DNA from: Candidatus Pacearchaeota archaeon
GTDB lineage: Archaea; Nanobdellota; Nanobdellia; Pacearchaeales; GW2011-AR1
Length of the DNA stretch: 27,108 nt
NCBI GenBank assembly: GCA_026414385.1
Contig: JAOAJC010000007.1
Span: forward strand, 1 to 27,108
Reading direction: 5' to 3'
This document shows, piece after piece, positions 7,715 to 25,218 of the stretch (positions are counted from its first letter, which is position 1; the number at the start of each line of letters is the position of its first letter). The notes under the pieces were generated by a model. That model searched no databases, was not told where the DNA came from, and worked only from the letters and a program-made list of their open reading frames with translations. The position numbers and the translations under genes are program-made.

Positions 7715-8500
7715 ATGGCAAAAGGCATTTCAATTAAATTTCAATCATATCAAACGACAATACCAAAACTTCTTGATTTAATCGGTTTGGGAAAAGAATT
7801 AAAAAAACACTCAAAAATAATCTTAAAGCCATATATTCAGCCAATTTTAGAACAAAATACCGAAAAAAACAAATTAAATTTGGAATTTGTTGAATCACTT
7901 TTACAATATTGCATAAAAAATAAAAATCCTGTCGCAGAAGTTTTCATAGCAGAAGGCGCTGATGGTTCTGATAGCATGGAACTTTTTAATCAACAAGGTT
8001 ATTCAAAGCTTGCAGAACAATATTCTATAGGTTTGATAGATTTAAACTCCACAGAGGTTGAGGAAGTTTTTAACAATAAATTCTTAAAGTTTCCACAAAT
8101 AATCTATCCAAAAGTTTTAAGGGAATCTTTCGTCATTTCACTTGCGAATTTATCTTCAAGCGAAGAACTTGGGATAAAAGGTTCTTTACCAAACATGTTG
8201 GGCGCATTTCCGCTACCTTATTATAAAGGTTTTTTCTCAAAAACAAAAAAAAGAATAAGGCAATTTCCTCTCAAATACGCAATTCATGACATCCTTCTTT
8301 GCAAAATGCCTGATTTCGCTTTAATTGATGCATCTGAAAAAGGAGTTATGCTCGCAGGCATACCTCTTGAAATTGATAAACAAGCTTCAAAATTACTTGG
8401 CATAGAATGGAAAAATGTTCCTTATCTAAGATTAATTGAAGAAAATATAGAACGGTTTGAGCCAAAAAAAGAAAAAGATGATAATCTAACTCAGTTTTAA
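7715..8500 (+). CDS. DUF362-like protein (hypothetical)
   Basis: 261 aa. An N-terminal layout resembling ISIK..SY......LLDLIG.......HSKIILKPYI, followed by an AEGADGS block, resembles the DUF362 pattern (vlIKPNl ... iaEg). Weak assignment made by eye. Confidence 0.45.
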   Translation: MAKGISIKFQSYQTTIPKLLDLIGLGKELKKHSKIILKPYIQPILEQNTEKNKLNLEFVESLLQYCIKNKNPVAEVFIAEGADGSDSMELFNQQGYSKLAEQYSIGLIDLNSTEVEEVFNNKFLKFPQIIYPKVLRESFVISLANLSSSEELGIKGSLPNMLGAFPLPYYKGFFSKTKKRIRQFPLKYAIHDILLCKMPDFALIDASEKGVMLAGIPLEIDKQASKLLGIEWKNVPYLRLIEENIERFEPKKEKDDNLTQF

Positions 8501-8926: not shown

Positions 8927-10432
8927 ATGTCAAGACAAGAAGAAATTAAAAAAGAGAGGTTAAAAAAAATCTCGGAACTTAAAAAACTAAACATAAATCC
9001 ATATCCTTATTCTTTTGATGTAAAAAATATCGCAATTGAATTGCATAATAAATACTCAAAATTAAAAAATAACGAAAAATCAAAAGATTCTGCAAAAATT
9101 GCAGGGAGGATATTAACAATAAGAGATATAGGAAAGATAATTTTTGCAGTTCTTCAAGACAGTTCTGGAAAAATCCAACTGGTTTTTCAAGATAATGAAA
9201 CCCCGGAAAAAACAAAAGAATTTTTTAAAAACTATATTGATTCGGGAGATTTTATTGGTGCAGAAGGAATTATTTTAAGAACAAAAACCGGCGAACTCTC
9301 AATTCTCGTTAAAAAAATAGAACTATTGTCAAAATCTCTATTGCCTTTGCCAGATAAATGGCACGGTTTAGAAGATAAGGAAGAAAGATATAGAAAAAGA
9401 TATCTTGATTTAATTATGAATCCTTCTGTTAAGGATGTTTTTGTTAAAAGGGAAAAAATTATTGATTCAATAAGAGAGTTATTAAAATCAAAAGGTTTTA
9501 TTGAAGTGGAAACCCCATATTTACAAACTATCTATGGTGGAGCAGAGGCCCGTCCATTCAAAACTCACTTGAATGCTCTTGATATTGATTTATTTTTAGC
9601 AATCTCTCCCGAATTGTATTTAAAGAGATTGGTTGTCGGAGGCATCGATAAAGTATTTACAATAGCAAGGAATTTTAGGAATGAGGGAATAGATAAATGG
9701 CATAATCCGGAATTTACTATGATGGAAATTTATCAGGCTTATGCTGATTACAATGACATGATGTCCTTGTTTGAAGAGATTTATGAAAACGCATGCAAGA
9801 AAGTTTTTGGAACAACAAAAATCAAACACGGAGAGATAATTTTAGATTTTAAAACTCCTTGGAGAAGAATGACAATGGCAGAGGCAATTAAGAAATATGC
9901 AAAAATAGATGTTTTAAAAATGTCGTCGGAACAATTGCTTGAGTTTGTAGAAAAAAATGGTGTTGAATACAAAGATGCAAGTTGGGGTTTGCTAGTTCAA
10001 TCAATCTTTGAACATTTCTGTGAGAAGGAAATAATACAACCGACATTCATAACAGATCATCCAAAAGAAACAACTCCTTTATGCAAAGTGCATAGAAAAG
10101 ATTCTCGGTTAATAGAGAGATTTGAACCATTCTGTTTGGGTGTAGAAATGGGTAATGCATATTCTGAACTAAATGACCCTGTCTTGCAAAAAACCTTGCT
10201 TCAAGAACAACAAGAAAAATTATCAAGAGGAAAAGAAGAAGCTCACCCATATGATGAGGACTTTGTAACCTCACTTGAATATGGGATGCCGCCAACCGGT
10301 GGTTTAGGTTTAGGTATTGATAGAATGGTTATTTTATTAACCTCTCAACCATCAATAAGGGATGTTATATTATTCCCATTTATGAAACCAGAATCTATTT
10401 CAAATTCAAATAAAACCAAAAAGGAGGTGTAA
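8927..10432 (+). CDS. lysS: Lysine--tRNA ligase, class II
   Basis: 501 aa. It has an N-terminal OB anticodon-binding domain (GRILTIRDIGKIIFAVLQDSSGKIQLV) and class II motifs: motif 1 FIEVETP, motif 2 FTIARNFRNEG.D..HNPEFTMMEIY, and motif 3 PPTGGLGLGIDRMVILLT. Confidence 0.95.
   Translation: MSRQEEIKKERLKKISELKKLNINPYPYSFDVKNIAIELHNKYSKLKNNEKSKDSAKIAGRILTIRDIGKIIFAVLQDSSGKIQLVFQDNETPEKTKEFFKNYIDSGDFIGAEGIILRTKTGELSILVKKIELLSKSLLPLPDKWHGLEDKEERYRKRYLDLIMNPSVKDVFVKREKIIDSIRELLKSKGFIEVETPYLQTIYGGAEARPFKTHLNALDIDLFLAISPELYLKRLVVGGIDKVFTIARNFRNEGIDKWHNPEFTMMEIYQAYADYNDMMSLFEEIYENACKKVFGTTKIKHGEIILDFKTPWRRMTMAEAIKKYAKIDVLKMSSEQLLEFVEKNGVEYKDASWGLLVQSIFEHFCEKEIIQPTFITDHPKETTPLCKVHRKDSRLIERFEPFCLGVEMGNAYSELNDPVLQKTLLQEQQEKLSRGKEEAHPYDEDFVTSLEYGMPPTGGLGLGIDRMVILLTSQPSIRDVILFPFMKPESISNSNKTKKEV
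10423..10429 (+). promoter_or_regulatory. Shine-Dalgarno site (GGAGGTG) for the downstream small ORF
   Basis: GGAGGTG lies 5 nt upstream of the ATG at 10435 and is complementary to the canonical 16S 3' end CCUCC. Confidence 0.5.
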
Positions 10433-13282: not shown

Positions 13283-13336
13283 GTGCCTCATTTATATTCA
13301 TCGAAAAGTATATAAGCTTTGATAATATATACGTAT

Positions 13337-13447
13337 ATGGAAGAATTCCAAAAATTTATAGAGAGGATTCCGGAGAAAACACTTCATAGAGTTAAGGAAC
13401 TCTTCGAAAAGAAAGAAAATAGTATGCCAAATCTTCCATATGATTAA
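13337..13447 (+). CDS. 36-aa ORF directly upstream of the radical SAM gene (candidate precursor peptide; hypothetical)
   Basis: Hand-translated: MEEFQKFIERIPEKTLHRVKELFEKKENSMPNLPYD. Its TAA ends 2 nt before the ATG of the rSAM gene. A TATA-like GTATATAA lies ~30 nt upstream. No homology recognised, so calling it coding is tentative. Confidence 0.35.
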   Translation: MEEFQKFIERIPEKTLHRVKELFEKKENSMPNLPYD

Positions 13448-13449
13448 TT

Positions 13450-15135
13450 ATGGTTGATCATTCCCTTTTTGAACCTATTTCTGTAATTTGGCATATTAAT
13501 AATGTTTGTAATTCTACATGCAAATATTGTTTTACAAATGCTCAATATAGCAATACGTTTATAAGTAATAATTGCTGGCAAGAAATTGTTAAAAGAATTA
13601 ATGAGGAAAAAAGTATAAAAAGAGTTTCTATCATAGGTGGAGAGCCGTTATTAAGTTTAGATTTGCCTAGAATTCTAAATCATTTAAGAAAAGATATAAT
13701 AATAAATATAGATTCAAATTTAACAAAAATTAAAGAAATATGGAATTCTTCATTTAAAAAAGCTTACTTTTGCACAACTATAGATAGTATTATAGAAGAT
13801 ATTCATCTTAAAACTAGAGGACACTCTTCTAAAAAAACAATCGAAGGAATAAAATTCTTAATCAATAAAGGTATAAAAGTGATGGTAGTAATTGTAGTTA
13901 ATAAGTATAATATTGACTCATTAGAAAATACTATTAGATATTTAATTTCAATTGGCGTTGACAAAATAGGCATAAGCAGAACAAGAATGAGTGGAAGAGC
14001 ACTTAAAGTCGGCTATGATTATTTTTACCCTCAAAGTATTAAAGATTTTAAAAATAATACGTTCTCTATATTACAAAAATTAATAAATGAATATGGTAAA
14101 GATAAATTCATAATTTATAATCTTTGGCATGATTCTAAATTCTTTGATTTAGGGTATACTTATGAACCCAGTTGTAAATGTGCTCTCTTTCGTTTATGTA
14201 TAGATTGGGATGGTTTTGCTTATCCATGTGAACTTATGCCTTTTTATTGGGATCTTTTCAAAGAAGCATACGCTTTAGAAAGGCCGAATGTCAAAGAATC
14301 TTCAATAAAAAATATTTTTGATGACTCCAAGCTTTTTAAATTTTTTAGAAATAAAATGTTGTTTTATCCAGTTGGTTGCGAAAATTGCAAATATAAAGAA
14401 AAATGCAATCATGGGTGTCGTTTTTATTCTTTTTTAATTTCAGGTAATCTTTTGGCAAAAGATGTGGTATGTAGGGCAGATTGTCTCTATGATGTCATAG
14501 GTTATAAATATTATTCGCCTCTTTTCAAAGAAGGAAAGGAAAGAATTAACAATAAAATAGCAAAATATCTAAACAAAAATAATAATTTTTTAGGGGAAAA
14601 AATATATGATTTAGGATGTGGAGGCGGAGTATGGACATTTTATTTAGAAGGATTAGGAAAAAAAGTAATAGGTATCGATATAAACAAAACTATGATTCTA
14701 ATGGCTCAAGAATTTAAAGACATATATGATAAAAAATCCAGTTTTATATGGGGTGATGTTTTAAAATATAATTTTGATAAGGCAGACTCTGCGCTTCTTC
14801 TTGATAATATCATTTCCAATTTCAGCAAGAAAGAACTAGAACAATTAATAAATAAACTAAAAGACAAAATTAAGGCATTAATTATCGAATTTTCTGAAAG
14901 CAAATATAAAAATGAAACATATAATTATAAATTCAATGGATTTGATATCTTTGAAAAAATAGAAAAATATAAGGGTAAATTAAAAAGATTATTTAAAAAT
15001 AAACAGACTGGGGCAGAATTTGAGATTTATACTTATCCCTGGTCAAAGGAAGAACTTATTAATTTATTAAAAAAATATGGGAATATATCTGAAGAAAATA
15101 TAGGGAATTCAATTGTAATTAAATTAAGCTTTTAA
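13450..15135 (+). CDS. Radical SAM / SPASM-domain enzyme fused to a C-terminal class I SAM-dependent methyltransferase
   Basis: 561 aa. CX3CX2C (CNSTCKYC, aa 20-27) and GGEPLL (aa 63-68). SPASM cysteines: CKCALFRLC, GFAYPC (GX4C), CENCKYKEKCNHGC (CX2CX5CX3C), CRADC (aa 242-345). Methyltransferase motif I is KIYDLGCGGGVW and an acidic post-I motif is VIGIDIN (aa 384-411). Confidence 0.9.
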   Translation: MVDHSLFEPISVIWHINNVCNSTCKYCFTNAQYSNTFISNNCWQEIVKRINEEKSIKRVSIIGGEPLLSLDLPRILNHLRKDIIINIDSNLTKIKEIWNSSFKKAYFCTTIDSIIEDIHLKTRGHSSKKTIEGIKFLINKGIKVMVVIVVNKYNIDSLENTIRYLISIGVDKIGISRTRMSGRALKVGYDYFYPQSIKDFKNNTFSILQKLINEYGKDKFIIYNLWHDSKFFDLGYTYEPSCKCALFRLCIDWDGFAYPCELMPFYWDLFKEAYALERPNVKESSIKNIFDDSKLFKFFRNKMLFYPVGCENCKYKEKCNHGCRFYSFLISGNLLAKDVVCRADCLYDVIGYKYYSPLFKEGKERINNKIAKYLNKNNNFLGEKIYDLGCGGGVWTFYLEGLGKKVIGIDINKTMILMAQEFKDIYDKKSSFIWGDVLKYNFDKADSALLLDNIISNFSKKELEQLINKLKDKIKALIIEFSESKYKNETYNYKFNGFDIFEKIEKYKGKLKRLFKNKQTGAEFEIYTYPWSKEELINLLKKYGNISEENIGNSIVIKLSF

Positions 15136-15216: not shown

Positions 15217-15662
15217 ATGGTAAATAATTTAGAGTTTATGGTAGATTCTAATGAAAAACCAAGAAGATTAATAACTGCTGCTTTACCTTATATTAATAAT
15301 GTTCCTCATCTAGGGCATATAGTCGGATCCCATTTGCCCGCAGACATTTTTGCTAGATATTGTCGGGCTAAAGGATACGAAACATTATTTATTGGCGGAA
15401 CAGATGAAAATGGCTCCACTTCAGAAATTGCAGCATTTCAATTAAGTGTCCCTATCGAAGAATTTTCTGACAGATTACATGAACAACATAAAAGAATTTA
15501 TGAATGGTTTGGGATACAGCATGCAAGAATTTTGGTGAGAAGCATGAGATTGGAAAACCCGAGATATTATTAAAAAAATTAACTGATATTGAGATAGAAA
15601 GGTACAAAAAATTTACTTCGCAAGGAACTGACTTGAGAGATTTTTTTAAAGATATTCTTTAA
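15217..15662 (+). pseudogene. metG: Methionyl-tRNA synthetase remnant: N-terminal ~95 aa joined out of frame to the C-terminal ~45 aa (large internal deletion)
   Basis: The N-terminal part reads ITAALPYINNVPHLGHIVGSHLPADIFARYCRAKGYETLFIGGTDENGSTSEIAA......EEF.DR.HE.HKRIYEWFGI, i.e. the class I HIGH-motif region of MetRS. It then diverges and stops at 15573. The +2 frame (15504..15662) reads ...NFGEKHEIGKPEILLKKLTDIEIERYKKF..., which matches the extreme C-terminal G.k..igKPe.LF.Ki.deeIe segment of MetRS. About 400 codons of the catalytic and anticodon-binding domains are missing. Confidence 0.8.
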
Positions 15663-15720: not shown

Positions 15721-17217
15721 TCATATCTCTTTCCACCTACCTTCTTTTATATCATAACCTTTTCCCATTCCTTTCACACCAATCCAGTTTACCTTTGCTC
15801 CGCAATCTCCCAAACTTTGACATAATGTTAGTTGTCTTTTAATCCAAGAATTTCTATCAGCACACTCTCCACTCTCTGTTGTTCCTTTGATTAACGATTT
15901 TTCTTTTGTTATTACGCATTTGTCATTCGCTTGATTGCAAACCGCGCTTGCTTCAGCCCCTTCCCAAAAAATTAATCCAGGAGCAATTTTAGGAACGCAC
16001 TTCTTTCCAACCATTTTGCAATCTCTTTTGTCACTATTTTCGCAATCCTCTGTCTTGTTCTGGAAAATGCAATCTTGCCACCTATTAACTCTGCATGCTG
16101 CTTGAGAAAAATCTCCTATTTTGTCTTCTATACAAACATGCTGACGAAAATCAGCACACTGTTCCAAAACCTCTTCACCATTTATACAGATGTGCTTGTA
16201 ATACCTACTTCCAACACTATCTTCCTTATCAGTATAAACGCACCAACTCTCTCCATGTTTGTAATTCTTTCCATTTTGAGTATTATAACAATTCAAGTCA
16301 GCACACATGTATTCTCCATACATTGGCATTTTTTTTCTTTCTGCCTGTCTGCAATAACTTCCTAACAAATAATTACAATTCCCGCATGTTTTTGAGTTCA
16401 TATTTGCATTTCCTTTTCCACAAACTTCTGTCTTGTCTTTTATATTTGTCCAATATTCTTTGTCATTTATTTTAGACGCATCATAAATATTGGCAGGATT
16501 TCCACAAGAGTCAACAAAATAAACCTCATCTTTTCCGGGCAAACATGTTGTTCTTGTTGTTGGTCCGCATTTTGTTCCCAATTCCTCAGCAGAACATAAT
16601 TTTCCTGGGAAGAAAGTTGCATCTTTCATCGTAGTATTTTTTCCTTTTCCACATTGCTCTCGTGTTGTTAATTTGCATAATTTTTCAAACTCATAATCAT
16701 AAACACAAGCGCCTTTTTCTTGATTCATAACACTCATAACACAATTAACCTCATTTTTTATCTCTTGTTTGTAATTTGTCTTCAATCCTAAATATGCAGA
16801 TAGTTTCTTGCATCTCACTAATGTAACAAAAGCAGCCTGATCTCCTAAAACACAACATCCCAATTCACATTGAGCAGGTGCTTTCTCTGCCCATATTCCT
16901 TTATTGTTATTACACACTACTTGTGGCGTCCTATCAGCACAAATCCCCTCATTTGAATCATAACAAACCCCCAACTTACAATAAGAGGTTGCCTCGCAAG
17001 ATGTTGGCGCTTTTCTATAATTTTCGTCACACTGTTCAGCAGGAACATTCTGACACCACAATCCTGATTTAGTTTTTTCGCAACAAACGCTTGGAACAGT
17101 TTGCGCACTTACAAACCCAATTAATGCAAAACTCGTTATTACTAAAATTATTAACATTAATCTATTTTTTCTATTGCTTGTTTTTTCTTTCATTTTTATT
17201 ATCTGTTTATTTTCCAT
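15721..17217 (-). CDS. Secreted cysteine-rich protein (cassette A, 'C' module), unknown family
   Basis: 498 aa. Sec-type signal LMLIILVITSFALIGFVSA|Q. About 41 Cys (8%). Collinear homology to aa ~80-560 of the 1226-aa protein: GVCYDSNEGIC vs GTCFDNFEGNC, CGNCNYLLGSYC vs CGNCDYMLGSIC, HGESWC vs HGETWC, CQSLGDCGAKVNW vs CISLGDCGGKANY. It starts 9 nt after the upstream gene. Confidence 0.8.
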   Translation of the reverse strand: MENKQIIKMKEKTSNRKNRLMLIILVITSFALIGFVSAQTVPSVCCEKTKSGLWCQNVPAEQCDENYRKAPTSCEATSYCKLGVCYDSNEGICADRTPQVVCNNNKGIWAEKAPAQCELGCCVLGDQAAFVTLVRCKKLSAYLGLKTNYKQEIKNEVNCVMSVMNQEKGACVYDYEFEKLCKLTTREQCGKGKNTTMKDATFFPGKLCSAEELGTKCGPTTRTTCLPGKDEVYFVDSCGNPANIYDASKINDKEYWTNIKDKTEVCGKGNANMNSKTCGNCNYLLGSYCRQAERKKMPMYGEYMCADLNCYNTQNGKNYKHGESWCVYTDKEDSVGSRYYKHICINGEEVLEQCADFRQHVCIEDKIGDFSQAACRVNRWQDCIFQNKTEDCENSDKRDCKMVGKKCVPKIAPGLIFWEGAEASAVCNQANDKCVITKEKSLIKGTTESGECADRNSWIKRQLTLCQSLGDCGAKVNWIGVKGMGKGYDIKEGRWKEI

Positions 17218-17226
17218 CTTTTTGTT

Positions 17227-18099
17227 TTATGCAAATGTCTGAATTCCATATCCAGCAGGCCACACTAAACTTCTTGAAGCAAACACAAAATAATCTCCTG
17301 TTGTCACATCACTCACATTGTAAATTTTACTCCCGTCATTAAACACCACTAAATCCCCGCTATATAATATTTTTTCTATTTTTAAATTTGGATAATATTG
17401 CATATACAAAGTTGTCTCCGAATCTCCATAAGCTGCTTCAAAATCAATTATGCTTGTTGTTATCATAAGTAAATCATACATCTTGCTCGGAATATCAACA
17501 GAAAACTTCTCAAAAGATTGTGTTGTCTCTTCTTTTGTTATTTTCATAGGAACAATAAAATTAACTCTTATTTTGTCTAAAACTATCTCAACATCTGAAT
17601 ATATCGCTCCCATTTTTACGGAAAATCCTTTTCTCTCATATTCTGTTTTTAATGCATATGCACAAGAATTTATTTTTTGTTTTAACATTCTCTCCATCTC
17701 GCTCTCAAAAGTATTTTTTATCATTGGTTCTTGAACAATGCATGTTTTGTAATAACCATTAATATAACAAAGATATTTTATTTTCATTCCTTTATACATT
17801 AAATACCCTTCAGGATTTTCATATCCTCCTCGAGAAGCCAATATATTCACACTATTTCTAACATCATCTTTTATACAATCTCTTAAAAAATTTTCTGGAT
17901 TAAAAACTGGTGGCGCAATGCTTTCTTTTATTCTTGGATAAAGCAAAACGAGCAATATGGCTCCAACAATAACAAGAGCAACAATTACAAATATTGCTAC
18001 CTGTCCCTTCTTACTCCTCATTTCTTTTATTATCGTTTTCTCAGATTTGTTATTAATCAATTCCCCTTCACCTTCCATTGTCTTTGTTTTATCTATCAT
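17227..18099 (-). CDS. Prepilin-like (class III signal peptide) protein (cassette A, 'P' module), unknown family
   Basis: 290 aa. MRSKKGQVAIFVIVALVIVGAILLVLLY has a basic leader, G|Q and a 22-aa hydrophobic helix. The likely true start is M27 at 18021. Paralogous to 25208..25984: CIKDDVRNSVNILASRGGYENPEGY..YKGMKIKYLC vs CVRDSVNEATDIMLPQGGFIEPKNY..FNKTKITYLC. Confidence 0.8.
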   Translation of the reverse strand: MIDKTKTMEGEGELINNKSEKTIIKEMRSKKGQVAIFVIVALVIVGAILLVLLYPRIKESIAPPVFNPENFLRDCIKDDVRNSVNILASRGGYENPEGYLMYKGMKIKYLCYINGYYKTCIVQEPMIKNTFESEMERMLKQKINSCAYALKTEYERKGFSVKMGAIYSDVEIVLDKIRVNFIVPMKITKEETTQSFEKFSVDIPSKMYDLLMITTSIIDFEAAYGDSETTLYMQYYPNLKIEKILYSGDLVVFNDGSKIYNVSDVTTGDYFVFASRSLVWPAGYGIQTFA

Positions 18100-18108
18100 C
18101 TTGTTAGA

Positions 18109-20520
18109 TTATAATATCTTTTTCTTTCCAATCTCACTTGCTTTTATTTCTATAGTGCACTCATTTGGATTAGGTTCGTTTCCATACTCGTCTATGCACT
18201 TAATATAATAAATAACGTTCGGTTTCCACTCAACATATTGTATCCACTTAATGTTCGGGTTTGAATAAACAAGAGGTATTCCTTCTACAATATTAAAATT
18301 GCAATCACTTAACGAATATCTACACTCTGCATTTTCGTTTGTTGTTATTTTTATCCCTGTTCCTTCTTCCTTATAAACTCTTGTGACTTTTGGAGCATCT
18401 TTATCAACAAAAATCTCAAACATTGTTGAGTTCTTTGCGCTATTTCCACCTGCATCAACGCAAGTTACATAATATCTATAAACCCCGCTTGCTAAACTCA
18501 ATCTTTGTTTATGCTTATAACTATTTGTCTCAAACATCTGCACAAAATCTCTCTCATTTTCAGTTGGCGAGAAATAACAAATCGCTTTTCCTTCTTCTGC
18601 ACCATCTCCTGTTATAACTTCTAAATCAACATCAACAATGCTTGTCGCTCCTGTTATTATCCCATTTGGCCCAATACTTTCTATTGTTAAAGGTATTGTC
18701 CCTTTTAAATTAAGTTCATAGCTCTGCACCATTACATTTCTCTCATTTTCCGGCTTCTCTGGTTGATCCTTGCATCTAAAATAAAATTTGTTGTTTTCTT
18801 TGTCTTTTATTCCACTTAAATTTCCAGCACAAGTATAACTCATAATTGCATTAATCTCTCTTGCTGTTCTTGCACAATTCATTGAATTTTCCATATTTTC
18901 ATATGGCTTGCTTTCTTTGCTCCATCTGCACTCTGCTGGCTCATTCACATAAATTTCTATAGGAACATTGTCAACTTTATAAGAAACATAATTGTTTGTC
19001 CCTATTGAACTATCTTGTATAATTGGTGGAGTTGTGTCAGGCCCTTTATCAACACAAAACTCTATGACAAATTCATCAACATTATAATTTCCATTTGCGT
19101 CTCTACACCTCACATAAAATGTCATTGTCCCGTCATTCTTTATTATTGGCGCAGTTTCTCCCTTTGTCTCATCAAATACATCAGGCCCAGGCAATTTCAA
19201 TTCTTGCGTATGATTATAATCATAAAGATTTGTCTCTCCAAAATAAAATGACATATTCTCATATGAATTGGGGTGTTCATAATCAATTTTACATTGTGTT
19301 GGTTCGTTTGTTCTTATGCCAAATTTCAAGGGAGTGAATGGTGCCAAACACTTAGTTGATGTTTTATCATTCACAATTTTAACACCTCTTGCCCCTGGTC
19401 TTATAGCGCCTAATGGCGCATACCTTAATCCAATTGGGTATAGTGTTTCTTCAGCAGCAGTTATTATCGGAGATGTAACATCTTTCGGATTAACCCATGC
19501 GCATTTTTCGTCAGCAGTCCCTTTATTTAATAACTGGCATGCCTGTCCCAAACTCCTACACCTATACTCTGAACAAGGTTTAAATTTGTCTGCATTGCAT
19601 TTTTCACAATCTTTACCTCCAACAGGAGGCTCATAAGGCAAACATGTAAATGATATTTTTTTCTTGTATTCCTCTTTATACATCAGCGCAAAAACAATAG
19701 CTGCAACAGCAACTCCTATTCCTATTCCAACTACTTGAGCTTTTGTCAAACCCCAAAGTGCTGTTTGTCCTATTTTCTTAGCCTCTGCAATTCCCAAAGT
19801 TATTTTATATGCAAGTACTCCTGCAGCAAGCGCACTGCTAATTGCTAATGATTCGCCTTTTTTTGCCCCAACAGCATTTGCTATCATAAATGAGGTGCCA
19901 AATACAGTAGCTCCCCATAATAACCCCTCCCCCAAATGCTTCCAGAATACCCTCCCTTCTATTGCACCACTTGTTAATCCTGCTTCTTGCGCAGCTTTGA
20001 ATTCTTCTGAAGTTAAAGTTACATCATTACCTCCCTCTTTATAATCCTCCCACTTTCCACTTTCTTTATTTTTAACTTGCACCTTATAAATTCCTTTTTC
20101 ATATTTAACTTGTGCATTCTCAGGTATACTTATTTTCTTTTGACCAATCGTCAATTGCCTAGCAGCATTATCCCTAAATGAGAAAGTTTCTCCTTCTCTT
20201 GGGATTTTTGTTACATGTATACCCTGCCCATTGCTCGTCCCAATTGGATTATTAAGTTTAGTTTTATCTTCTGCCCCTTGGTTTTTTTGTTCATTGGATG
20301 AGTCTGCTCTCCTTGTTGCACTATCTTGGTTAACGGATGATGGCTCATTTTTTGTTGCACTATCTTGCTTAACGGATGATGGCTTATGATTTCCATTTTG
20401 TCCACTAACAAATTTTATCTCACCAATCATAAAGCAAAAGGCAAAAGTTGCTATAATTAAAATAAAAATCTCACTTATGGCAAACCCTTTAAGATACAAT
20501 TTATACCCTCTTTTAATCAT
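18109..20520 (-). CDS. Large membrane/surface protein with a prepilin-like N-terminus, a central hydrophobic block and four tandem beta-sandwich-like repeats (cassette A, 'X' module)
   Basis: 803 aa. N-terminus MIKRGYKLYLKG|FAISEIFILIIATFAF. S/Q/D-rich linker with a 13-aa duplication. Hydrophobic helices span aa ~195-280. A Cys-knot-like segment reads CLPYEPPVGGKDCEKCNADKFKPCSEYRCRSLGQAC. Four repeats follow, each with (T/V)NEP..C(K/R)(I/W/Y) ... Y(V/F/I)(R/T/K)C.D..GN. Confidence 0.85.
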   Translation of the reverse strand: MIKRGYKLYLKGFAISEIFILIIATFAFCFMIGEIKFVSGQNGNHKPSSVKQDSATKNEPSSVNQDSATRRADSSNEQKNQGAEDKTKLNNPIGTSNGQGIHVTKIPREGETFSFRDNAARQLTIGQKKISIPENAQVKYEKGIYKVQVKNKESGKWEDYKEGGNDVTLTSEEFKAAQEAGLTSGAIEGRVFWKHLGEGLLWGATVFGTSFMIANAVGAKKGESLAISSALAAGVLAYKITLGIAEAKKIGQTALWGLTKAQVVGIGIGVAVAAIVFALMYKEEYKKKISFTCLPYEPPVGGKDCEKCNADKFKPCSEYRCRSLGQACQLLNKGTADEKCAWVNPKDVTSPIITAAEETLYPIGLRYAPLGAIRPGARGVKIVNDKTSTKCLAPFTPLKFGIRTNEPTQCKIDYEHPNSYENMSFYFGETNLYDYNHTQELKLPGPDVFDETKGETAPIIKNDGTMTFYVRCRDANGNYNVDEFVIEFCVDKGPDTTPPIIQDSSIGTNNYVSYKVDNVPIEIYVNEPAECRWSKESKPYENMENSMNCARTAREINAIMSYTCAGNLSGIKDKENNKFYFRCKDQPEKPENERNVMVQSYELNLKGTIPLTIESIGPNGIITGATSIVDVDLEVITGDGAEEGKAICYFSPTENERDFVQMFETNSYKHKQRLSLASGVYRYYVTCVDAGGNSAKNSTMFEIFVDKDAPKVTRVYKEEGTGIKITTNENAECRYSLSDCNFNIVEGIPLVYSNPNIKWIQYVEWKPNVIYYIKCIDEYGNEPNPNECTIEIKASEIGKKKIL
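20313..20390. repeat. Two tandem copies of a 39-bp unit inside the X-module linker
   Basis: TTGTTGCACTATCTTGGTTAACGGATGATGGCTCATTTT is followed by a near-identical second copy starting at 20352. It encodes PSSVKQDSATKN/EPSSVNQDSATRR on the minus strand. Confidence 0.8.
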
Positions 20521-20585
20521 TTATTAATATAAGAAACCTTATTTATAAATTCTTTCTATCCTTTTTAAATAATTTGAAATACTTT

Positions 20586-21236
20586 TTAGTCACCAACTAC
20601 CTCAAATTTAACTACACCAATTGTTGTACCATCTTCACAAGTTAATTTTGCTATATAAGTTCCTATAGGTAAGCATCGTAGCGTCTCCCCCAAATTAAAA
20701 CGATAATTATAATTTATTTCCGAAAACTTAAAAATGCCTTCATATATTATTTTACCATCAATTCTTTTTAAACTAAATTCTTTAGTTCCTGGTATTGTGC
20801 AATCATAAACACAAAAAGATATGGGCTCTTTATTTGTAAAAACATTTCTACCCCTCCCTATATATTCATCTAATTCACCACAACCATTTTTATTTGTATC
20901 TTCAAAAGTATTAAAAACAAAAAAATAATTTGTTGGGAGTATCTCCTCGGGCTGACGCTGTCGCTCAACAATAATTACCTTAGGTTCTCTTGCCCCAACA
21001 GCTTCTTTCATTGCTTCGCGATTTGCTAAGCTACCTTGAAAGCTAGACAAAGCACCCCATGCAGCAGCCTCCTTTACACTCCCAGCAGTTATAGCATTAT
21101 ATGAGCTAGCAGCACTACCAGCAGCATACAAAGGAAAACATCCAGAATTAAGGAGACCTCCAGCAATAGCTGTTAATCCCAATACAGAATTTCTTGCTTT
21201 TTTCCCTATTTTCTCCAATAAACTCATATTTTTCAC
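20586..21236 (-). CDS. Hypothetical membrane/lipoprotein-like protein between the two cassettes
   Basis: 216 aa. N-terminus SVLGLTAIAGGLLNSGC is lipobox-like. An Ala/Gly/Ser-rich stretch follows, then a C-terminal domain ending ...TYIAKLTCEDGTTIGVVKFEVVGD (beta-sandwich-like). No family recognised. Confidence 0.65.
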   Translation of the reverse strand: MKNMSLLEKIGKKARNSVLGLTAIAGGLLNSGCFPLYAAGSAASSYNAITAGSVKEAAAWGALSSFQGSLANREAMKEAVGAREPKVIIVERQRQPEEILPTNYFFVFNTFEDTNKNGCGELDEYIGRGRNVFTNKEPISFCVYDCTIPGTKEFSLKRIDGKIIYEGIFKFSEINYNYRFNLGETLRCLPIGTYIAKLTCEDGTTIGVVKFEVVGD

Positions 21237-21537
21237 AATATTCTAAAATATATAAATCTTTCTATTTGTTGTTACTATAAAGAAGGTATACTTTTTTATT
21301 TTTTTTCTATATTATCAGTTCAAAATCTTTTAACATTTTCTTATTGTTTTGAATGCTTTTTGTAATCTACCCTAATAATTTTCTTGTCAATTACTTTTTT
21401 AGATTAGCAAATACGCTTTTTTCTATCTAACCAAGTTTGTAGAAATACTTTTTAAATTATTTTGTTCTTTTAATATTCTTTGTTCTTGATAATTCTTCTT
21501 TTAAGCAAAACCTTTTGAGATGTTTTTTTAACAACTT

Positions 21538-24500
21538 TCAAAAATTAACCCCTCTTACACTAATAGCACATTGCCCTGGCTTATTTTCAAATTCATCTTT
21601 ACACATAATATATCTTGTCTGTTTCTTGGCAAAATTCTCGCTATGCACAAACGCATTTCCTTGCATTAAGGTTCCATTTGCATAATTAAAATCACACTTT
21701 TCAAAACTATAAACACACTCCGCCTTTTCGTTAGTTATAACATAAAGCACATTGTTTTTGTTATAAACCCTTGTTATTTTTGGCTCTTCATTGTCAATTC
21801 TTACACTAAACAATGAAACATCTTCAGCAACATTTCCAATTTCATCTTCACATTTAATAACAATTCTCTTTTCTTCGCTTCCAAATATGTCATTTCTCGT
21901 TATCGCATTGAATATTTGTTTATGAACATTCTTTCCTGTCTCCATAAATCTAATAAATGATTCCCCGACCTTATAACTGCATTTAGCGTTGCCATTCAAT
22001 CCTCCTGTTGTTTTCAAACTTAATTTAACACTCATCGGCTCCACACCAGAAACAAGAACACTTCCATTTCCAGGTTCAATGTTCGTAATCTTTAATGGAT
22101 TTGTTTTTTTCAATGTAAATGAATAACTATTTGTCATTGTATTTCTCTTTCCTTCATCAACTCCTTTTAACCATGGCTGATCTATGCACCTTACGTAGAT
22201 ATTTTCTTCATTTTTAATTAAATTAATTGTTGCATTGCACTCGTAAGCAAGGTATGATTTAAATCTAATAGCATCCTCATCAGCACAATCAAAAACATTT
22301 TTCATACTCTCATAATCTTTATTTTCATAATCCCACTTGCATTCAGCTGGTTCATTGACAAAAATACTTATTTCTTGTAAATTAGTATCTGCTTTAACAA
22401 AATTTATTTCAGGGATTTTACCCAATACAATCGGTCCACTATTATCCTCTCCAGGTTTAATACACATACTAACAACATAATTAACAGGATTTTCATAACC
22501 ATTTCCATTTCTGCATTTTATAAAAATCTTAAAATCTATTTTTTCATTAGGTTTGGAAAGCGTTGCTCCAAAACTCTCTGGAGAAGGAACGAAAAATTCA
22601 ATTTTATGATTATCTTTGAATAATCCCCCACTTAAAGCATGCATATCATCAAACGCAACAATTTCCTCTGTCTCTTCACCAGAAACAATATAGCTGCACT
22701 GTCCTAATTTATCAAGAGCAATGCCAAAATTAAACTTATAATATGATTTTATGCAACCATCTTCCTCATTAGTTTTTATGGTAAATCCTCTATCTGTAAT
22801 ATCAACATAACTATATCCTTCTGGTAACACTCCATCAAGTTGCTTTATTTTTGGTGGCACCACATCATTTTTATTAACCCATCTGCAACTTGCAATCCCT
22901 GTCTCACTTTCATCAAAATATTTACATTCTCTCCCTAAACTCTCACATGCGTATTTCCCACAAGGCAATCCATCACTCCCGCACTTCCAGCAATTTTCTC
23001 CTCCATATTTTGCTTGCCACGGCAAACACTCATATGTTATTGACACCCTATTTGTGTCGCCTATACCTATTCCATATACCATTATTATAACTGCAATAAT
23101 TGCATATGGGGCTGTCCAAGGTGCATAAACAAGAGCAGTTAAGGCATTTACTTCTTCTTCACTTAATCCTCTAGAAAATCTATCTAATATATTAGCATTT
23201 CCGGTGCCCAAAAGTATGAGCCCTATTGGCCCGCCGACTATTGCTCCTGCTATTTTTAAACTTGCTGGCCCTTGTTTCGCTTCAACCTGTCGTTTTAAAA
23301 TTGCAGTTGTTGAACCGCTTGTTCCTTTTATCTTTGAAATTATTTTTAAGAACTTTTCCGTTAAACTCTCATTTTTTAACAATATCTCGGCATACAATTG
23401 CGCATATGGATTTATGTCAATAAAATTATCTTTCGTCTCATTTGCATAAATTATTGTTATCTCTTTTCCAGCATCATAATTTAATAATTTTTTCAAATTT
23501 TTTGTTTTTGAATTCCCCTGCTTGCTAACTTTAAAATTCTTAACATAATCTCCCAAATAATTCGCTTTTCCACCGCAATCTCCCAAACTAATACACATAT
23601 CGTTCATTTTTTCTATAAACTCTTCTTTTAAACAATCACAATTCACCTTACAATCCCAACCACTCGTTGTTTTTACTTCTGCCACTTTGCATTTTTTTGT
23701 TGCAAATCCGCATTTTTCTTCAACGCTCTCAATATCTTCTCTATCTCTATTAAAACCTACAGGATATTTCGGAGCGCACTCTGCAACAGCAAATTTCTTA
23801 CTTATGCTAACGTTTTTTATATAACAATCTGGATTTTTAATGCACTCTTCGAATATTTTTGTTTTGTCAGCTTTTTTCTCTTTTAATTTTTCATTTATCT
23901 CCACGCACTCACTCCCCCTATTAGCAGAACATCCTGCTTGCGAAAATAGCTTCCCCATTCCGATATCAATTCTTGCTTCTCTACATACCTCTGCCCTATA
24001 ATCTTGACATGGCTGTATTCTAACCACTCCATCAACACAACTCATAACAAAATGCCTGCTTCCAGGCAAATCCATCGCATTCATTGTTTTATTATCTATT
24101 CCAGTTAAACTTTGATAATGGCACCATGTTTCTCCATGTTCTCTTTTATTTCCCCACTCGTCAATGCACGATAAATCTCTACAAACAAAATTTTGCATAC
24201 TATCATCAAGCTTTTGTTCGTTCGTCTTATTCCCGCAAATGCTTCCTAACATATAATCACAATTCCCGCATGTTCCTCTATTCATAAAAGGATTATTTGC
24301 TGTCCCTAATGAACAGCTCTTTTCCTTACTCAAAACCATTCCATTATTCCAACTTCTTGCTTTGTTTGCATCATAAATATTCTCTCTATTCCCACAAGAA
24401 TCAAACCAATAAACTTCGTCTTTCCCTTTAACACACCCAGAACTTTTCTGTCTCTCGCATTTTGTCTTTAACTCAGGATTAGAACAAAGATAGTTTGGAT

Positions 24501-25218
24501 AAAACTCTCCTCTTTTTTGTTCGCATTCTTGTCTTGTCCCAAATTTGCAAACATTATAATCATCTTCTTTTCCTATAATACACGCCCCTTCTTCTTGCGT
24601 CTTTGTTGCAAGCCAGCAATCAATCTCATTTGTTATCTCTCTCTTAAAATTCATTTCAATTCCTTTTCTTTTTGACAAAATCTCGCATCTTTTCTCTGTT
24701 ACAAATTCAGTTTTTTCTCCTATAATGCAGCACCTTTTCTCACAAACATTAACATTTCCATTTGGTTCATTATACCATATGCCTCCTTTTTGTTCGCATC
24801 TTTTCTTCGGTGAAATTATACAATTTCCTTCAAAATTATCAAAACAAGTTCCTATTTTACACTCTTCTGTTTCATCCATCTCTAAAGGAATGCAATTATC
24901 CTTGCAAATACTATTACAAATACTTGAATTGTACTCTTGGCAATATTTTCCATCTTTTGTCTCTATGCATGTTGCAATAACCTCTTCTTGCGCAGATACC
25001 AACCCTTTCTCACTAAAAATGCTTTTTACTAATTTTTCATAAAATAACATAAAAATCTCAATCTTGCTCTTTGAGTTTTTCTTTTGCTCAATCACATTTT
25101 TCTCTCTTATCTCAAAACTTTCGCGAATAAAATAAGAAAATGCAAAAATCATTCCAATTAATAAAATAATCTGCACGATTGCTTTGAAACTCTCGTTCTT
25201 TTTCATCTTAAAAACCAA
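21538..25218 (-). CDS. Giant fusion protein: Cys-rich 'C' module (aa ~80-560), hydrophobic block (aa ~650-720) and 'X'-type repeat module (aa ~725-1226)
   Basis: 1226 aa. The N-terminal anchor is KAIVQIILLIGMIFAFSYFI. An alternative start, MKKNESF at 25206, lies 1 nt after the upstream stop. The N-terminal half aligns to the 498-aa protein and has ~43 Cys. The C-terminal half aligns to aa ~290-803 of the 803-aa protein: ECLPWQAKYGGENCWKCGSDGLPCGKYACESLGREC, VNEPAECKWD, YVRCIDQPW, TNEKAECVYS. Confidence 0.85.
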   Translation of the reverse strand: MVFKMKKNESFKAIVQIILLIGMIFAFSYFIRESFEIREKNVIEQKKNSKSKIEIFMLFYEKLVKSIFSEKGLVSAQEEVIATCIETKDGKYCQEYNSSICNSICKDNCIPLEMDETEECKIGTCFDNFEGNCIISPKKRCEQKGGIWYNEPNGNVNVCEKRCCIIGEKTEFVTEKRCEILSKRKGIEMNFKREITNEIDCWLATKTQEEGACIIGKEDDYNVCKFGTRQECEQKRGEFYPNYLCSNPELKTKCERQKSSGCVKGKDEVYWFDSCGNRENIYDANKARSWNNGMVLSKEKSCSLGTANNPFMNRGTCGNCDYMLGSICGNKTNEQKLDDSMQNFVCRDLSCIDEWGNKREHGETWCHYQSLTGIDNKTMNAMDLPGSRHFVMSCVDGVVRIQPCQDYRAEVCREARIDIGMGKLFSQAGCSANRGSECVEINEKLKEKKADKTKIFEECIKNPDCYIKNVSISKKFAVAECAPKYPVGFNRDREDIESVEEKCGFATKKCKVAEVKTTSGWDCKVNCDCLKEEFIEKMNDMCISLGDCGGKANYLGDYVKNFKVSKQGNSKTKNLKKLLNYDAGKEITIIYANETKDNFIDINPYAQLYAEILLKNESLTEKFLKIISKIKGTSGSTTAILKRQVEAKQGPASLKIAGAIVGGPIGLILLGTGNANILDRFSRGLSEEEVNALTALVYAPWTAPYAIIAVIIMVYGIGIGDTNRVSITYECLPWQAKYGGENCWKCGSDGLPCGKYACESLGRECKYFDESETGIASCRWVNKNDVVPPKIKQLDGVLPEGYSYVDITDRGFTIKTNEEDGCIKSYYKFNFGIALDKLGQCSYIVSGEETEEIVAFDDMHALSGGLFKDNHKIEFFVPSPESFGATLSKPNEKIDFKIFIKCRNGNGYENPVNYVVSMCIKPGEDNSGPIVLGKIPEINFVKADTNLQEISIFVNEPAECKWDYENKDYESMKNVFDCADEDAIRFKSYLAYECNATINLIKNEENIYVRCIDQPWLKGVDEGKRNTMTNSYSFTLKKTNPLKITNIEPGNGSVLVSGVEPMSVKLSLKTTGGLNGNAKCSYKVGESFIRFMETGKNVHKQIFNAITRNDIFGSEEKRIVIKCEDEIGNVAEDVSLFSVRIDNEEPKITRVYNKNNVLYVITNEKAECVYSFEKCDFNYANGTLMQGNAFVHSENFAKKQTRYIMCKDEFENKPGQCAISVRGVNF

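Follow-up and report, generated by a model that had tools for sequence, protein, structure and literature searches.

Structure of the locus

The DNA analyzed here, hereafter the window, is a 27,108-nt stretch of a Candidatus Pacearchaeota archaeon (contig JAOAJC010000007.1, assembly GCA_026414385.1). At positions 13337-15135, it carries two adjacent genes, the first encoding a short peptide and the second a radical S-adenosylmethionine (SAM) enzyme in which a SPASM domain is fused to a methyltransferase. A preliminary description had proposed that the pair is a candidate module for a peptide that is made by the ribosome and then modified post-translationally (RiPP). The parts of the module are as follows:

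13337..13447, + strand: open reading frame (ORF call) of the putative precursor peptide, 36 aa, product MEEFQKFIERIPEKTLHRVKELFEKKENSMPNLPYD
13337..13420, + strand: putative leader, peptide residues 1-28, with the motif E-R-I-P-E-x2-L-x3-K-x2-F
13421..13447, + strand: putative core S-M-P-N-L-P-Y-D plus stop; P31, P34 and Y35 invariant, M30 a conserved hydrophobic position
13450..15135, + strand: ORF (ORF call) of the radical SAM/SPASM-methyltransferase enzyme, 561 aa
13450..14154, + strand: radical SAM core, residues 1-235 (PF04055, 59.7 bits against a cut-off of 29.5)
14167..14484, + strand: SPASM domain, residues 240-345 (PF13186, 24.0 bits against a cut-off of 21.5)
14485..15135, + strand: methyltransferase module, residues 346-561, plus stop (PF13649, Methyltransf_25, 38.1 bits against a cut-off of 27)

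The peptide ORF ends with a TAA stop at 13445-13447, which is followed by TT and then by the enzyme ATG at 13450, in agreement with the 2-nt spacing given previously. The composition described for the 561-aa ORF, i.e., a complete CX3CX2C site, a seven-Cys SPASM motif and a fused class I methyltransferase with DLGCGGG, was also confirmed by the motifs and by Pfam scores above the cut-offs. Judging from the sequences, we consider it likely that the two genes constitute a minimal RiPP-like module consisting of a precursor peptide and a bifunctional maturase.

Domain composition and structural relatives of the enzyme

The radical SAM cluster site is formed by C20, C24 and C27 (CNSTCKYC, residues 20-27; nt 13507-13530). 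The first part of the SPASM motif corresponds to C242/C244...G255-x4-C260 and the second to C310-x2-C313-x5-C319-x3-C323, with C341 as the final Cys. This is the full seven-Cys motif (CX9-15GX4C ... CX2CX5CX3C ... C), of the type for two auxiliary [4Fe-4S] clusters. In the alignment of 19 homologs, the radical SAM and SPASM cysteines are invariant or nearly so, and by both motif and Pfam cut-off the enzyme belongs to the Radical SAM superfamily and to the SPASM group. None of the NCBIfam models reached its cut-off with the enzyme or with ten of its nearest representative relatives; the best matches, all sub-threshold, were to the peptide maturases WgkB, StsB, PqqE, DynA and MftC. A PDB sequence search with the enzyme gave only weak generic matches, and one public source lists the 561-aa protein as radical SAM protein.

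An AlphaFold2 model of the enzyme was obtained with a pLDDT of 90.8 and a pTM of 0.86. For its N-terminal two thirds, the best Foldseek match was SuiB (5v1q, E 6e-15), followed by anSME, SkfB and PqqE (6c8v), all of which are radical SAM enzymes that modify peptides or proteins and carry auxiliary Fe-S clusters, in SkfB in a twitch instead of a SPASM domain. Thus, with no NCBIfam cut-off reached and with maturases as structural neighbors, the enzyme does not cluster with the sulfatase, cofactor or tRNA radical SAM families, as would be expected if the preliminary description is correct. An N-terminal RiPP recognition element (RRE) was not found (no PF05402 match in the enzyme), and there is no room for one because the CX3CX2C site starts at residue 20. 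A PqqD-like partner gene was found neither nearby in the window nor as a conserved neighbor across the loci described below. RREs are common in RiPP systems, but they are not obligatory.

The methyltransferase module has a conserved segment, YDVIGYxYYSPL, at its N-terminus, followed by a Rossmann fold of class I. This fold and motif I (DLGCGGG; residues 387-393, nt 14608-14628) identify it as a class I methyltransferase. The fold of the C-terminal third matches PH0226, 1wzn, the glycine/sarcosine N-methyltransferase GSMT, CypM, TylM1 and XrdM, and the matched structures include 1ve3, 5hii and 7wzg; the E values of the methyltransferase half against the PH0226, GSMT, CypM and TylM1 folds range from 1e-13 to 1e-11. 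CypM is the N-terminal methyltransferase of cypemycin. A standalone homolog, P0023, carries the same N-terminal segment and weakly matches the daptide RiPP methyltransferase model (46.7 bits against a cut-off of 175). The fold is shared with the peptide or small-molecule N-methyltransferases of the PH0226/GSMT/CypM/TylM1 type, and the daptide methyltransferase is a further relative, but all scores are far below the cut-offs, and the fusion to a radical SAM/SPASM enzyme and the YDVIGYxYYSPL segment are specific to the family found in the window.

Association of the small ORF with the enzyme in homologous loci

A key question is whether the small ORF accompanies the enzyme outside the window; homologs lacking a conserved upstream ORF had been named beforehand as a finding that would speak against the candidate RiPP-like module. 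A word-indexed search of 5.8 billion proteins yielded 19 sequences of the enzyme family, and an exhaustive profile search of 1.84 billion representatives yielded 67 below E 1e-30, of which only about ten representative clusters clearly belong to the family. The enzyme family is rare and patchy. DNA was retrieved for every reachable family member and scanned in six frames for ORFs ending like the peptide of the window. A small ORF on the same strand was present just upstream in all 16 distinct loci with an enzyme homolog, including those with enzymes of 33-35% identity or more distant and those in which the parts are separate genes. The strict motif [MLIV]-P-x-x-P-Y-(0-2 residues)-stop occurred 27 times in the 388,430 six-frame codons of the window and the fetched loci; all 27 matches were ORFs immediately upstream of an enzyme homolog, and none was found elsewhere. 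The association is far beyond chance expectation, and the reading as a candidate RiPP-like module is supported. The peptide ends in the individual loci (handles beginning with L) are the following:

L001: ...ASMPSAPYD
L004: ...ADLPCAPYAE
L006: ...NFIPGAPY
L008: ...SMMPCPPYD
L010: ...ASMPNPPYD
L012: ...SLLPHAPY, and L013: ...SLLPTAPY (enzymes 34% identical)
L017: ...NAMPAPPYD
L022: ...ATLPTAPYE
L023: ...NMMPNPPYD
L024: ...SSMPNPPYD
L026: ...ESIPSAPY
L027: ...NKVPCPPYD (338-aa relative with radical SAM/SPASM only)
L028: ...SRLPTAPY

The distance between the peptide stop and the enzyme start ranges from -8 to +38 nt in 14 loci and is 176 nt in L027, while in L028 the next gene after the peptide is the methyltransferase. 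The enzyme ATG is often embedded in the TAT-GAY-TAA that encodes Y-D-stop. The L027 peptide has a near-identical counterpart in the cyanobacterium Microcoleus sp. B9-D4, where it is a hypothetical protein. L005 (3811-3849) and L006 (3744-3848), two assemblies of one locus with identical enzymes, differ by one A in an A8/A9 run within the peptide ORF, and this difference truncates the peptide ORF in the NCBI assembly. Homopolymer indels in these metagenome assemblies should be counted as gene decay only after inspection of the reads.

Putative leader and core of the peptide

All upstream ORFs end in [M/L/I/V]-P-x-[A/P/L]-P-Y-(D/E/G/AE/none). Thus, the C-terminal P-Y-D that had been expected to be conserved was confirmed in part: Phi-P-x-x-P-Y is conserved, where Phi is the hydrophobic residue, whereas the Asp after Tyr is not. 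The side chains invariant in the core are Tyr and two Pro, together with the hydrophobic M/L/I/V five positions before Tyr. In 5 of the 15 aligned peptides Tyr is terminal, and Cys occurs only at the variable position x1 (3/15). The invariant Pro residues are encoded by CCT, CCC, CCA or CCG and the invariant Tyr by TAT or TAC across loci; this use of synonymous codons indicates selection on the amino acids rather than on the DNA.

The peptides are 25-67 aa long, and their N-terminal parts vary by enzyme clade while the C-terminal six residues remain constant. Leaders of the close clade share an [EK][KR]-I-[PS]-x3-L-x3-K-x2-[FY] block, and distant clades have another leader. A variable leader followed by a constant core is the anatomy of a RiPP precursor, and a co-located short ORF with these two properties, as is characteristic of RiPP systems, was found in 16/16 loci. 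No Pfam or NCBIfam model matched the peptides, even at E 10.

Could the small ORF instead be a regulatory upstream ORF, i.e., a ribosome-arrest or coupling peptide whose Pro-rich end (P-x-x-P-Y-D-stop) stalls ribosomes and adjusts translation of the enzyme, with the substrate of the enzyme encoded elsewhere? The conserved stretch does comprise the final 6-7 codons ahead of the stop, sequences such as PP and PxP slow peptide-bond formation, and in many loci the enzyme ATG lies inside TAT-GAY-TAA or 2 nt after it. However, arrest peptides depend on their last codons and on where they lie relative to the regulated gene, and the residues between Tyr and the stop vary here (D, E, G, AE or none). 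The motif is also kept where the methyltransferase gene follows (L028) and across the 176-nt gap of L027; the leader motif changes with the enzyme clade, while the ribosome tunnel is constant; and one core position covaries with the state of the methyltransferase (see below). Moreover, the substrate of a SPASM enzyme of this type has to be a peptide or protein, and the neighborhoods conserve no other candidate. We therefore regard a purely regulatory ORF as very improbable.

Another possibility is that the enzyme does not act on a peptide but on, for example, a tRNA, lipid, tetrapyrrole or sugar, and that the small ORF encodes an accessory subunit or an unrelated conserved micro-protein. SPASM and twitch domains also occur in the non-peptide enzymes AhbD/NirJ, BtrN and Tes, which are among the weak matches of the enzyme, and the module lies repeatedly beside aminoacyl-tRNA synthetase genes, chiefly metG. 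Nevertheless, no score comes near the cut-offs of those families, the structures matched best are those of peptide or protein maturases, and a product of 25-67 aa with a hypervariable body and a conserved six-residue tail does not have the anatomy of a structural subunit, which makes this possibility extremely remote.

Splitting and loss of the methyltransferase and covariation with the core

On the archaeal contig L028, where NMD3 and TFIIS are neighbors, the module is divided among three genes in the order peptide (67 aa), methyltransferase (216 aa) and radical SAM/SPASM enzyme (345 aa). The separate methyltransferase starts with MKQIYDFLGYRLY, the counterpart of YDVIGYxYYSPL, which in the window links the SPASM domain to the methyltransferase. 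At the other extreme, the enzymes of one clade, 347 aa long, stop directly behind the last SPASM Cys and lack the methyltransferase. The parts remain together through fusion, fission and reordering, which argues that peptide, radical SAM/SPASM enzyme and methyltransferase are functionally linked. The radical SAM/SPASM-peptide pair is the invariant core of the system. Beyond peptide and enzyme, no gene was conserved across the examined neighborhoods, including any that could supply a substrate.

The state of the methyltransferase follows the residue before the second Pro of Phi-P-x1-x2-P-Y (x2; Leu33 in the window, nt 13433-13435). Where x2 is Ala or Leu, the methyltransferase is present with an intact motif I (the window, L001, L004, L006, L022, L012, L013, L026 and L028). 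Where x2 is Pro, it is absent (the 347-aa clade and, within the limits of its short contig, L027), altered in motif I (IIGSKGG in L017, DLSCGGG in L024 and DLNCGGG in P0008, a relative of L024) or frameshifted (L007 and L010). In a rough neighbor-joining tree, peptides ending in APY together with a methyltransferase are basal, and the lesions are spread over several distinct PPY branches. If it is real, the pattern suggests that a peptide with Pro at x2 can do without methylation. This covariation links the peptide sequence to the make-up of the enzyme, and we count it in favor of the RiPP-like module. The frameshifts in L007 and L010 were considered as cases of gene decay and downgraded on account of the homopolymer runs in which they lie; the L005 and L006 assemblies differ likewise.

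Comparison with known peptide-modifying systems

SuiB (StrB), which acts on SuiA in the streptide system, is the best structural match and resembles the window enzyme in its two auxiliary clusters and in the short precursor gene beside it. However, the identity is only 16-17%, SuiB has an N-terminal RRE and lacks a fused methyltransferase, and its system forms a Lys-Trp cross-link, while the PxxPY core contains neither Lys nor Trp. The catalytic and bridging region of SuiB, and not its RRE, holds the leader.

PqqE and its substrate PqqA are similar in that a radical SAM/SPASM enzyme without a fused RRE acts on a short substrate with a reactive Tyr near the C-terminus. The motif is E-x3-Y in PqqA and P-x2-P-Y or Phi-x4-Y here, the partner residue lying a few positions upstream in both. 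The PqqE score is 60.5 bits against 381 (TIGR02109), no core Glu is conserved, pqqB, pqqC and pqqD are missing, and PqqE has no fused methyltransferase. In the mycofactocin pathway, to which the SAM-dependent methyltransferase MftM belongs, the radical SAM/SPASM enzyme MftC acts on the C-terminal Tyr of the short peptide MftA. Here, the MftC score is 54.3 bits against 265 (TIGR03962), genes for MftB, MftD, MftE and MftF are missing, and the peptides end in Pro-Tyr, mostly with one or two further residues, whereas MftA ends in Val-Tyr. The Tyr near the C-terminus recalls the substrates of PqqE and MftC, as noted previously, but the enzyme is a member of neither family.

Among the NCBIfam models, WgkB is the best match, but with 84 bits against a cut-off of 650. 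WgkB, RrrB, TqqB, NxxcB and GggB each combine a small precursor with one radical SAM/SPASM enzyme that makes a single cross-link in a short motif (PMC11851443, PMC9389541). The motif residues of these streptococcal RaS-RiPPs (W/K, R/Y, T/Q, C) are not conserved in the PxxPY peptides. Sactipeptide and ranthipeptide maturases differ in that no donor Cys is conserved here, and the scores are low (StsB 64.9 against 625, PapB 43.5 against 340). Triceptides carry an aromatic-X-X motif whose ring is bonded to the residue at +2, while in the PxxPY peptides Tyr is terminal or has only one or two residues after it (AmcB 43.3 against 425). With anSME (TIGR03942, 42.9 bits against 349), the enzyme shares no more than a neighboring fold, and the peptide has no sulfatase motif C/S-x-P-x-R. 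Thus, thioether formation does not fit because Cys is not conserved, a three-residue cyclophane does not fit because Tyr is at the peptide end, and MftC-type decarboxylation does not fit because Tyr is usually not the last residue. Lys-Trp type links and a PQQ-like Glu-Tyr linkage were also considered and do not fit the core in the 15-peptide alignment.

The same comparisons bear on a further alternative, a version of the main reading with another use of the product, in which the module makes a peptide-derived cofactor like pyrroloquinoline quinone (PQQ) or mycofactocin and not a secreted natural product: the Tyr would be converted into a small redox-active or catalytic molecule, methylated and excised by a housekeeping peptidase, and the product would stay inside the cell. 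PqqE and MftC, both radical SAM/SPASM enzymes whose short peptide substrates carry the target Tyr at or close to the C-terminus, are among the sub-threshold matches, and PqqE is also a fold match. Tyr is the last residue in 5/15 peptides, the module has no conserved exporter or dedicated protease and is kept in genomes with few accessory genes, and M16 peptidases, the family that includes PqqF, lie near it in L010 and L023. These M16 genes, however, score far below the PqqF cut-off and better, though still below the cut-off, with YfmF/YfmH. Most peptides have D, E, G or AE after the Tyr, unlike in MftC-type decarboxylation. Moreover, no dependent oxidoreductase or chaperone similar to PqqD or MftB co-occurs, and a family so rare and patchy, with 67 of 1.84 billion representatives below E 1e-30, is not what would be expected for an essential cofactor. 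A cofactor function is, in our opinion, rather unlikely.

Proposed mechanism

If the pair is a RiPP-like module, the 36-aa product of 13337-13447 would be the substrate. Its helical, variable N-terminal leader with ERIPExxLxxxKxxF would dock on the enzyme, and recognition would be direct because the enzyme has no RRE domain. The core S-M-P-N-L-P-Y-D would then enter the radical SAM active site, where the [4Fe-4S] cluster on C20/C24/C27 would reductively cleave SAM; the resulting 5'-deoxyadenosyl radical would take a hydrogen from an sp3 carbon of the core, and the two SPASM auxiliary clusters would accept the electron of the oxidative step. The most likely product would be an intramolecular cross-link between the invariant Tyr and either the hydrophobic residue that lies five positions before it or a Pro, with the two invariant Pro pre-organizing a turn. 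The fused class I methyltransferase would subsequently methylate the same peptide, a step apparently needed only when Ala or Leu, and not Pro, precedes the second Pro.

A Tyr-centered cross-link is favored because Tyr, the two Pro and one hydrophobic residue are the only conserved side chains of the core. We tentatively suggest a C-C or C-O bond from the Tyr to an sp3 carbon of the hydrophobic residue or of a Pro, a specific chemistry that we regard as less likely right than wrong; epimerization or another modification of Tyr is a possible alternative chemistry.

Several observations weigh against the RiPP-like reading as a whole. No RRE, protease or exporter was found in the window or conserved across the loci, in line with the earlier remark that no protease or exporter is adjacent, and this leaves leader recognition, processing and export unexplained; the candidates are scattered (an ABC transporter beside the module in L022, a C39 peptidase at a distance of 5 kb in L005, and M16 and AI-2E genes in L010 and L023). 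The core has no conserved Cys, Lys, Trp or Glu of the kind used in known cross-link chemistries. A Pro-rich C-terminus before a stop that overlaps the next start also fits a regulatory arrest peptide. The relationship between x2 and the methyltransferase is based on small numbers, related lineages and few independent events, and the frameshifts in L007 and L010, both in homopolymer runs, may be assembly artifacts.

Distribution and genomic neighborhood

In L008, L023 and L010, the module lies within a gene order of bacterial type, rsmI-[module]-metG-tatD, in which RsmI scores 236 bits against a cut-off of 168. The rsmI genes are located at:

L008, 1768-2436
L023, 3164-3826

The loci that lack a methyltransferase carry the module as an insertion in this bacterial housekeeping cluster. 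The rsmI-metG-tatD context indicates that part of the family is bacterial, probably similar to the candidate phyla radiation (CPR), and that the module has crossed the domain boundary. From these contexts, the family is distributed among DPANN archaea, bacterial-type loci (probably CPR-like) and one cyanobacterium. The preliminary setting of the module in reduced-genome archaea was therefore too narrow, given the bacterial-type loci and the cyanobacterial relative. A distant member, L013 (CAZOKS010000034.1), comes from a bin labeled "uncultured Methanosarcinales archaeon", so that either the family extends beyond DPANN or the contig is mis-binned; its neighbors are a thioredoxin-reductase-like gene, glutamate dehydrogenase, a MarR/TrmB regulator and a TehB-like methyltransferase. 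In other loci, transposases, helicases, a transglutaminase and, in L022, an ABC transporter are found beside the module. The differing archaeal and bacterial neighborhoods indicate that the module moves between very different genomes as a self-contained unit. A scan of viral contigs found no relative and hence no evidence for a virus-borne module.

The module adjoins a methionyl-tRNA synthetase (MetRS) gene in three contexts: the window (as a remnant), the rsmI-metG-tatD loci and L024 (convergent). The MetRS genes beside the module in the other loci are:

L008, 3782-5326
L010, 5438-6979
L023, 5052-6551
L024, 2870-4474, - strand

The remnant in the window is 33-37% identical to the MetRS of L008, L010, L023 and L024 (blastx), and the MetRS beside the other modules are 26-28% identical between groups, compared with 52-60% for the radical SAM enzymes. 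Joint transfer of the module with a single metG was rejected on these values (26-37% against 52-60% between contexts): MetRS diverge far more than the enzymes, and co-transfer fails as an explanation. Within 5 kb, there are further aminoacyl-tRNA synthetase genes in L001 (ArgRS), L004 (ProRS), L005 (class II D/K/N), L025 (SerRS) and the window. The metG remnant of the window is treated here as a neighbor of the module, although metG adjacency recurs in other loci. A broader reading, which we consider distinctly unlikely, treats the PxxPY peptides as a new RiPP class of DPANN archaea, CPR-like bacteria and cyanobacteria, in which methylation can be replaced by Pro at x2 (for example, by forming backbone N-methyl-Ala) and the product is tied to MetRS or to methionine/SAM handling. 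If this tie existed, the position of the module beside three unrelated metG genes would be explained. Backbone N-methylation that turns Ala into a Pro-like tertiary amide is not known for the present methyltransferase fold.

Other features of the window

The remaining features referred to here are:

1-965, + strand: 3' part of an archaeal 23S rRNA
1138-1457, - strand: archaeal RNase P RNA
1519-1590, - strand: tRNA-Phe(GAA)
7715-8500, + strand: DUF362 (putative Fe-S) protein, approximately 5 kb upstream of the module
8927-10432: aminoacyl-tRNA synthetase gene
13302..13315, + strand: putative archaeal BRE/TATA element cgaaaag-TATATAA (transcription factor B recognition element and TATA box), read from the sequence
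15217..15662, + strand: decayed metG (MetRS remnant; PF09334, 94.6 bits, residues 18-102 only)
15721-17217, 17227-18099, 18109-20520 and 21538-25218, all - strand: large ORFs without a Pfam family

The 23S rRNA part, RNase P RNA, tRNA-Phe(GAA) and hjc identify the window as archaeal. The flanks reported in the preliminary description were correct: hjc lies upstream of the module (85 bits) and the decayed metG downstream. The latter retains approximately 100 N-terminal MetRS residues with HLGH, followed by a frame break and a short C-terminal tail (…IGKPEILLKKLTD…), and about 400 codons are gone; either a second metG exists elsewhere in the genome, or the assembly is faulty at 15217-15662. The center of the BRE/TATA candidate is situated ~25 nt 5' of the peptide ATG. 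A leaderless or near-leaderless transcript might be expected from it, with the reservation that the genome is AT-rich; AAAnTTTAWATA elements of a similar kind occur 25-33 nt 5' of the peptide ATG in L004, L006, L013 and L022. An Rfam scan of the whole window revealed no RNA element in or near the module, and a riboswitch explanation is thus unsupported. The GC content is 0.23-0.29 in the module and 0.29-0.35 in the flanks, a weak island signal; the suggestion that the module is an accessory insertion gains little from this composition and more from the differing neighborhoods of the homologs.

A DUF362 gene is also next but one to the module in L028 (1845-2702, - strand), which may be a coincidence. 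The large ORFs at 15721-25218 probably encode surface or secreted proteins. One of them, a Cys-rich protein of 498 aa that has a hydrophobic segment at its N-terminus, lies convergent to the metG remnant. The only Pfam signal among these ORFs is a sub-threshold Big_13 match.

Novelty and biological significance

In the literature searched, with incomplete coverage, we found no description of this enzyme and peptide family and no RiPP pathway from DPANN archaea; to our knowledge, few RiPP pathways are known from archaea at all. On the sequence evidence, the precursor family and the core motif are new and the fused architecture is unusual, but the system follows the known radical SAM/SPASM RiPP paradigm and is not categorically new. 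Since Phi-P-x-x-P-Y lacks the residues of every characterized radical SAM cross-link family, the enzyme is a promising place to look for new radical chemistry, whether on Tyr, on Pro or on an aliphatic residue.

With ~1.8 kb, one peptide and one bifunctional enzyme, the module is about the minimal RiPP system, and its small size allows a direct test by heterologous co-expression. Variants that are split, fused or devoid of the methyltransferase, together with the APY/PPY covariation, provide natural controls, and Microcoleus sp. B9-D4, a relative from a cultured lineage, offers a route to the native product. As DPANN archaea keep few accessory genes, the conservation of such a two-gene module suggests that it may have a role in their symbiotic or competitive lifestyle.

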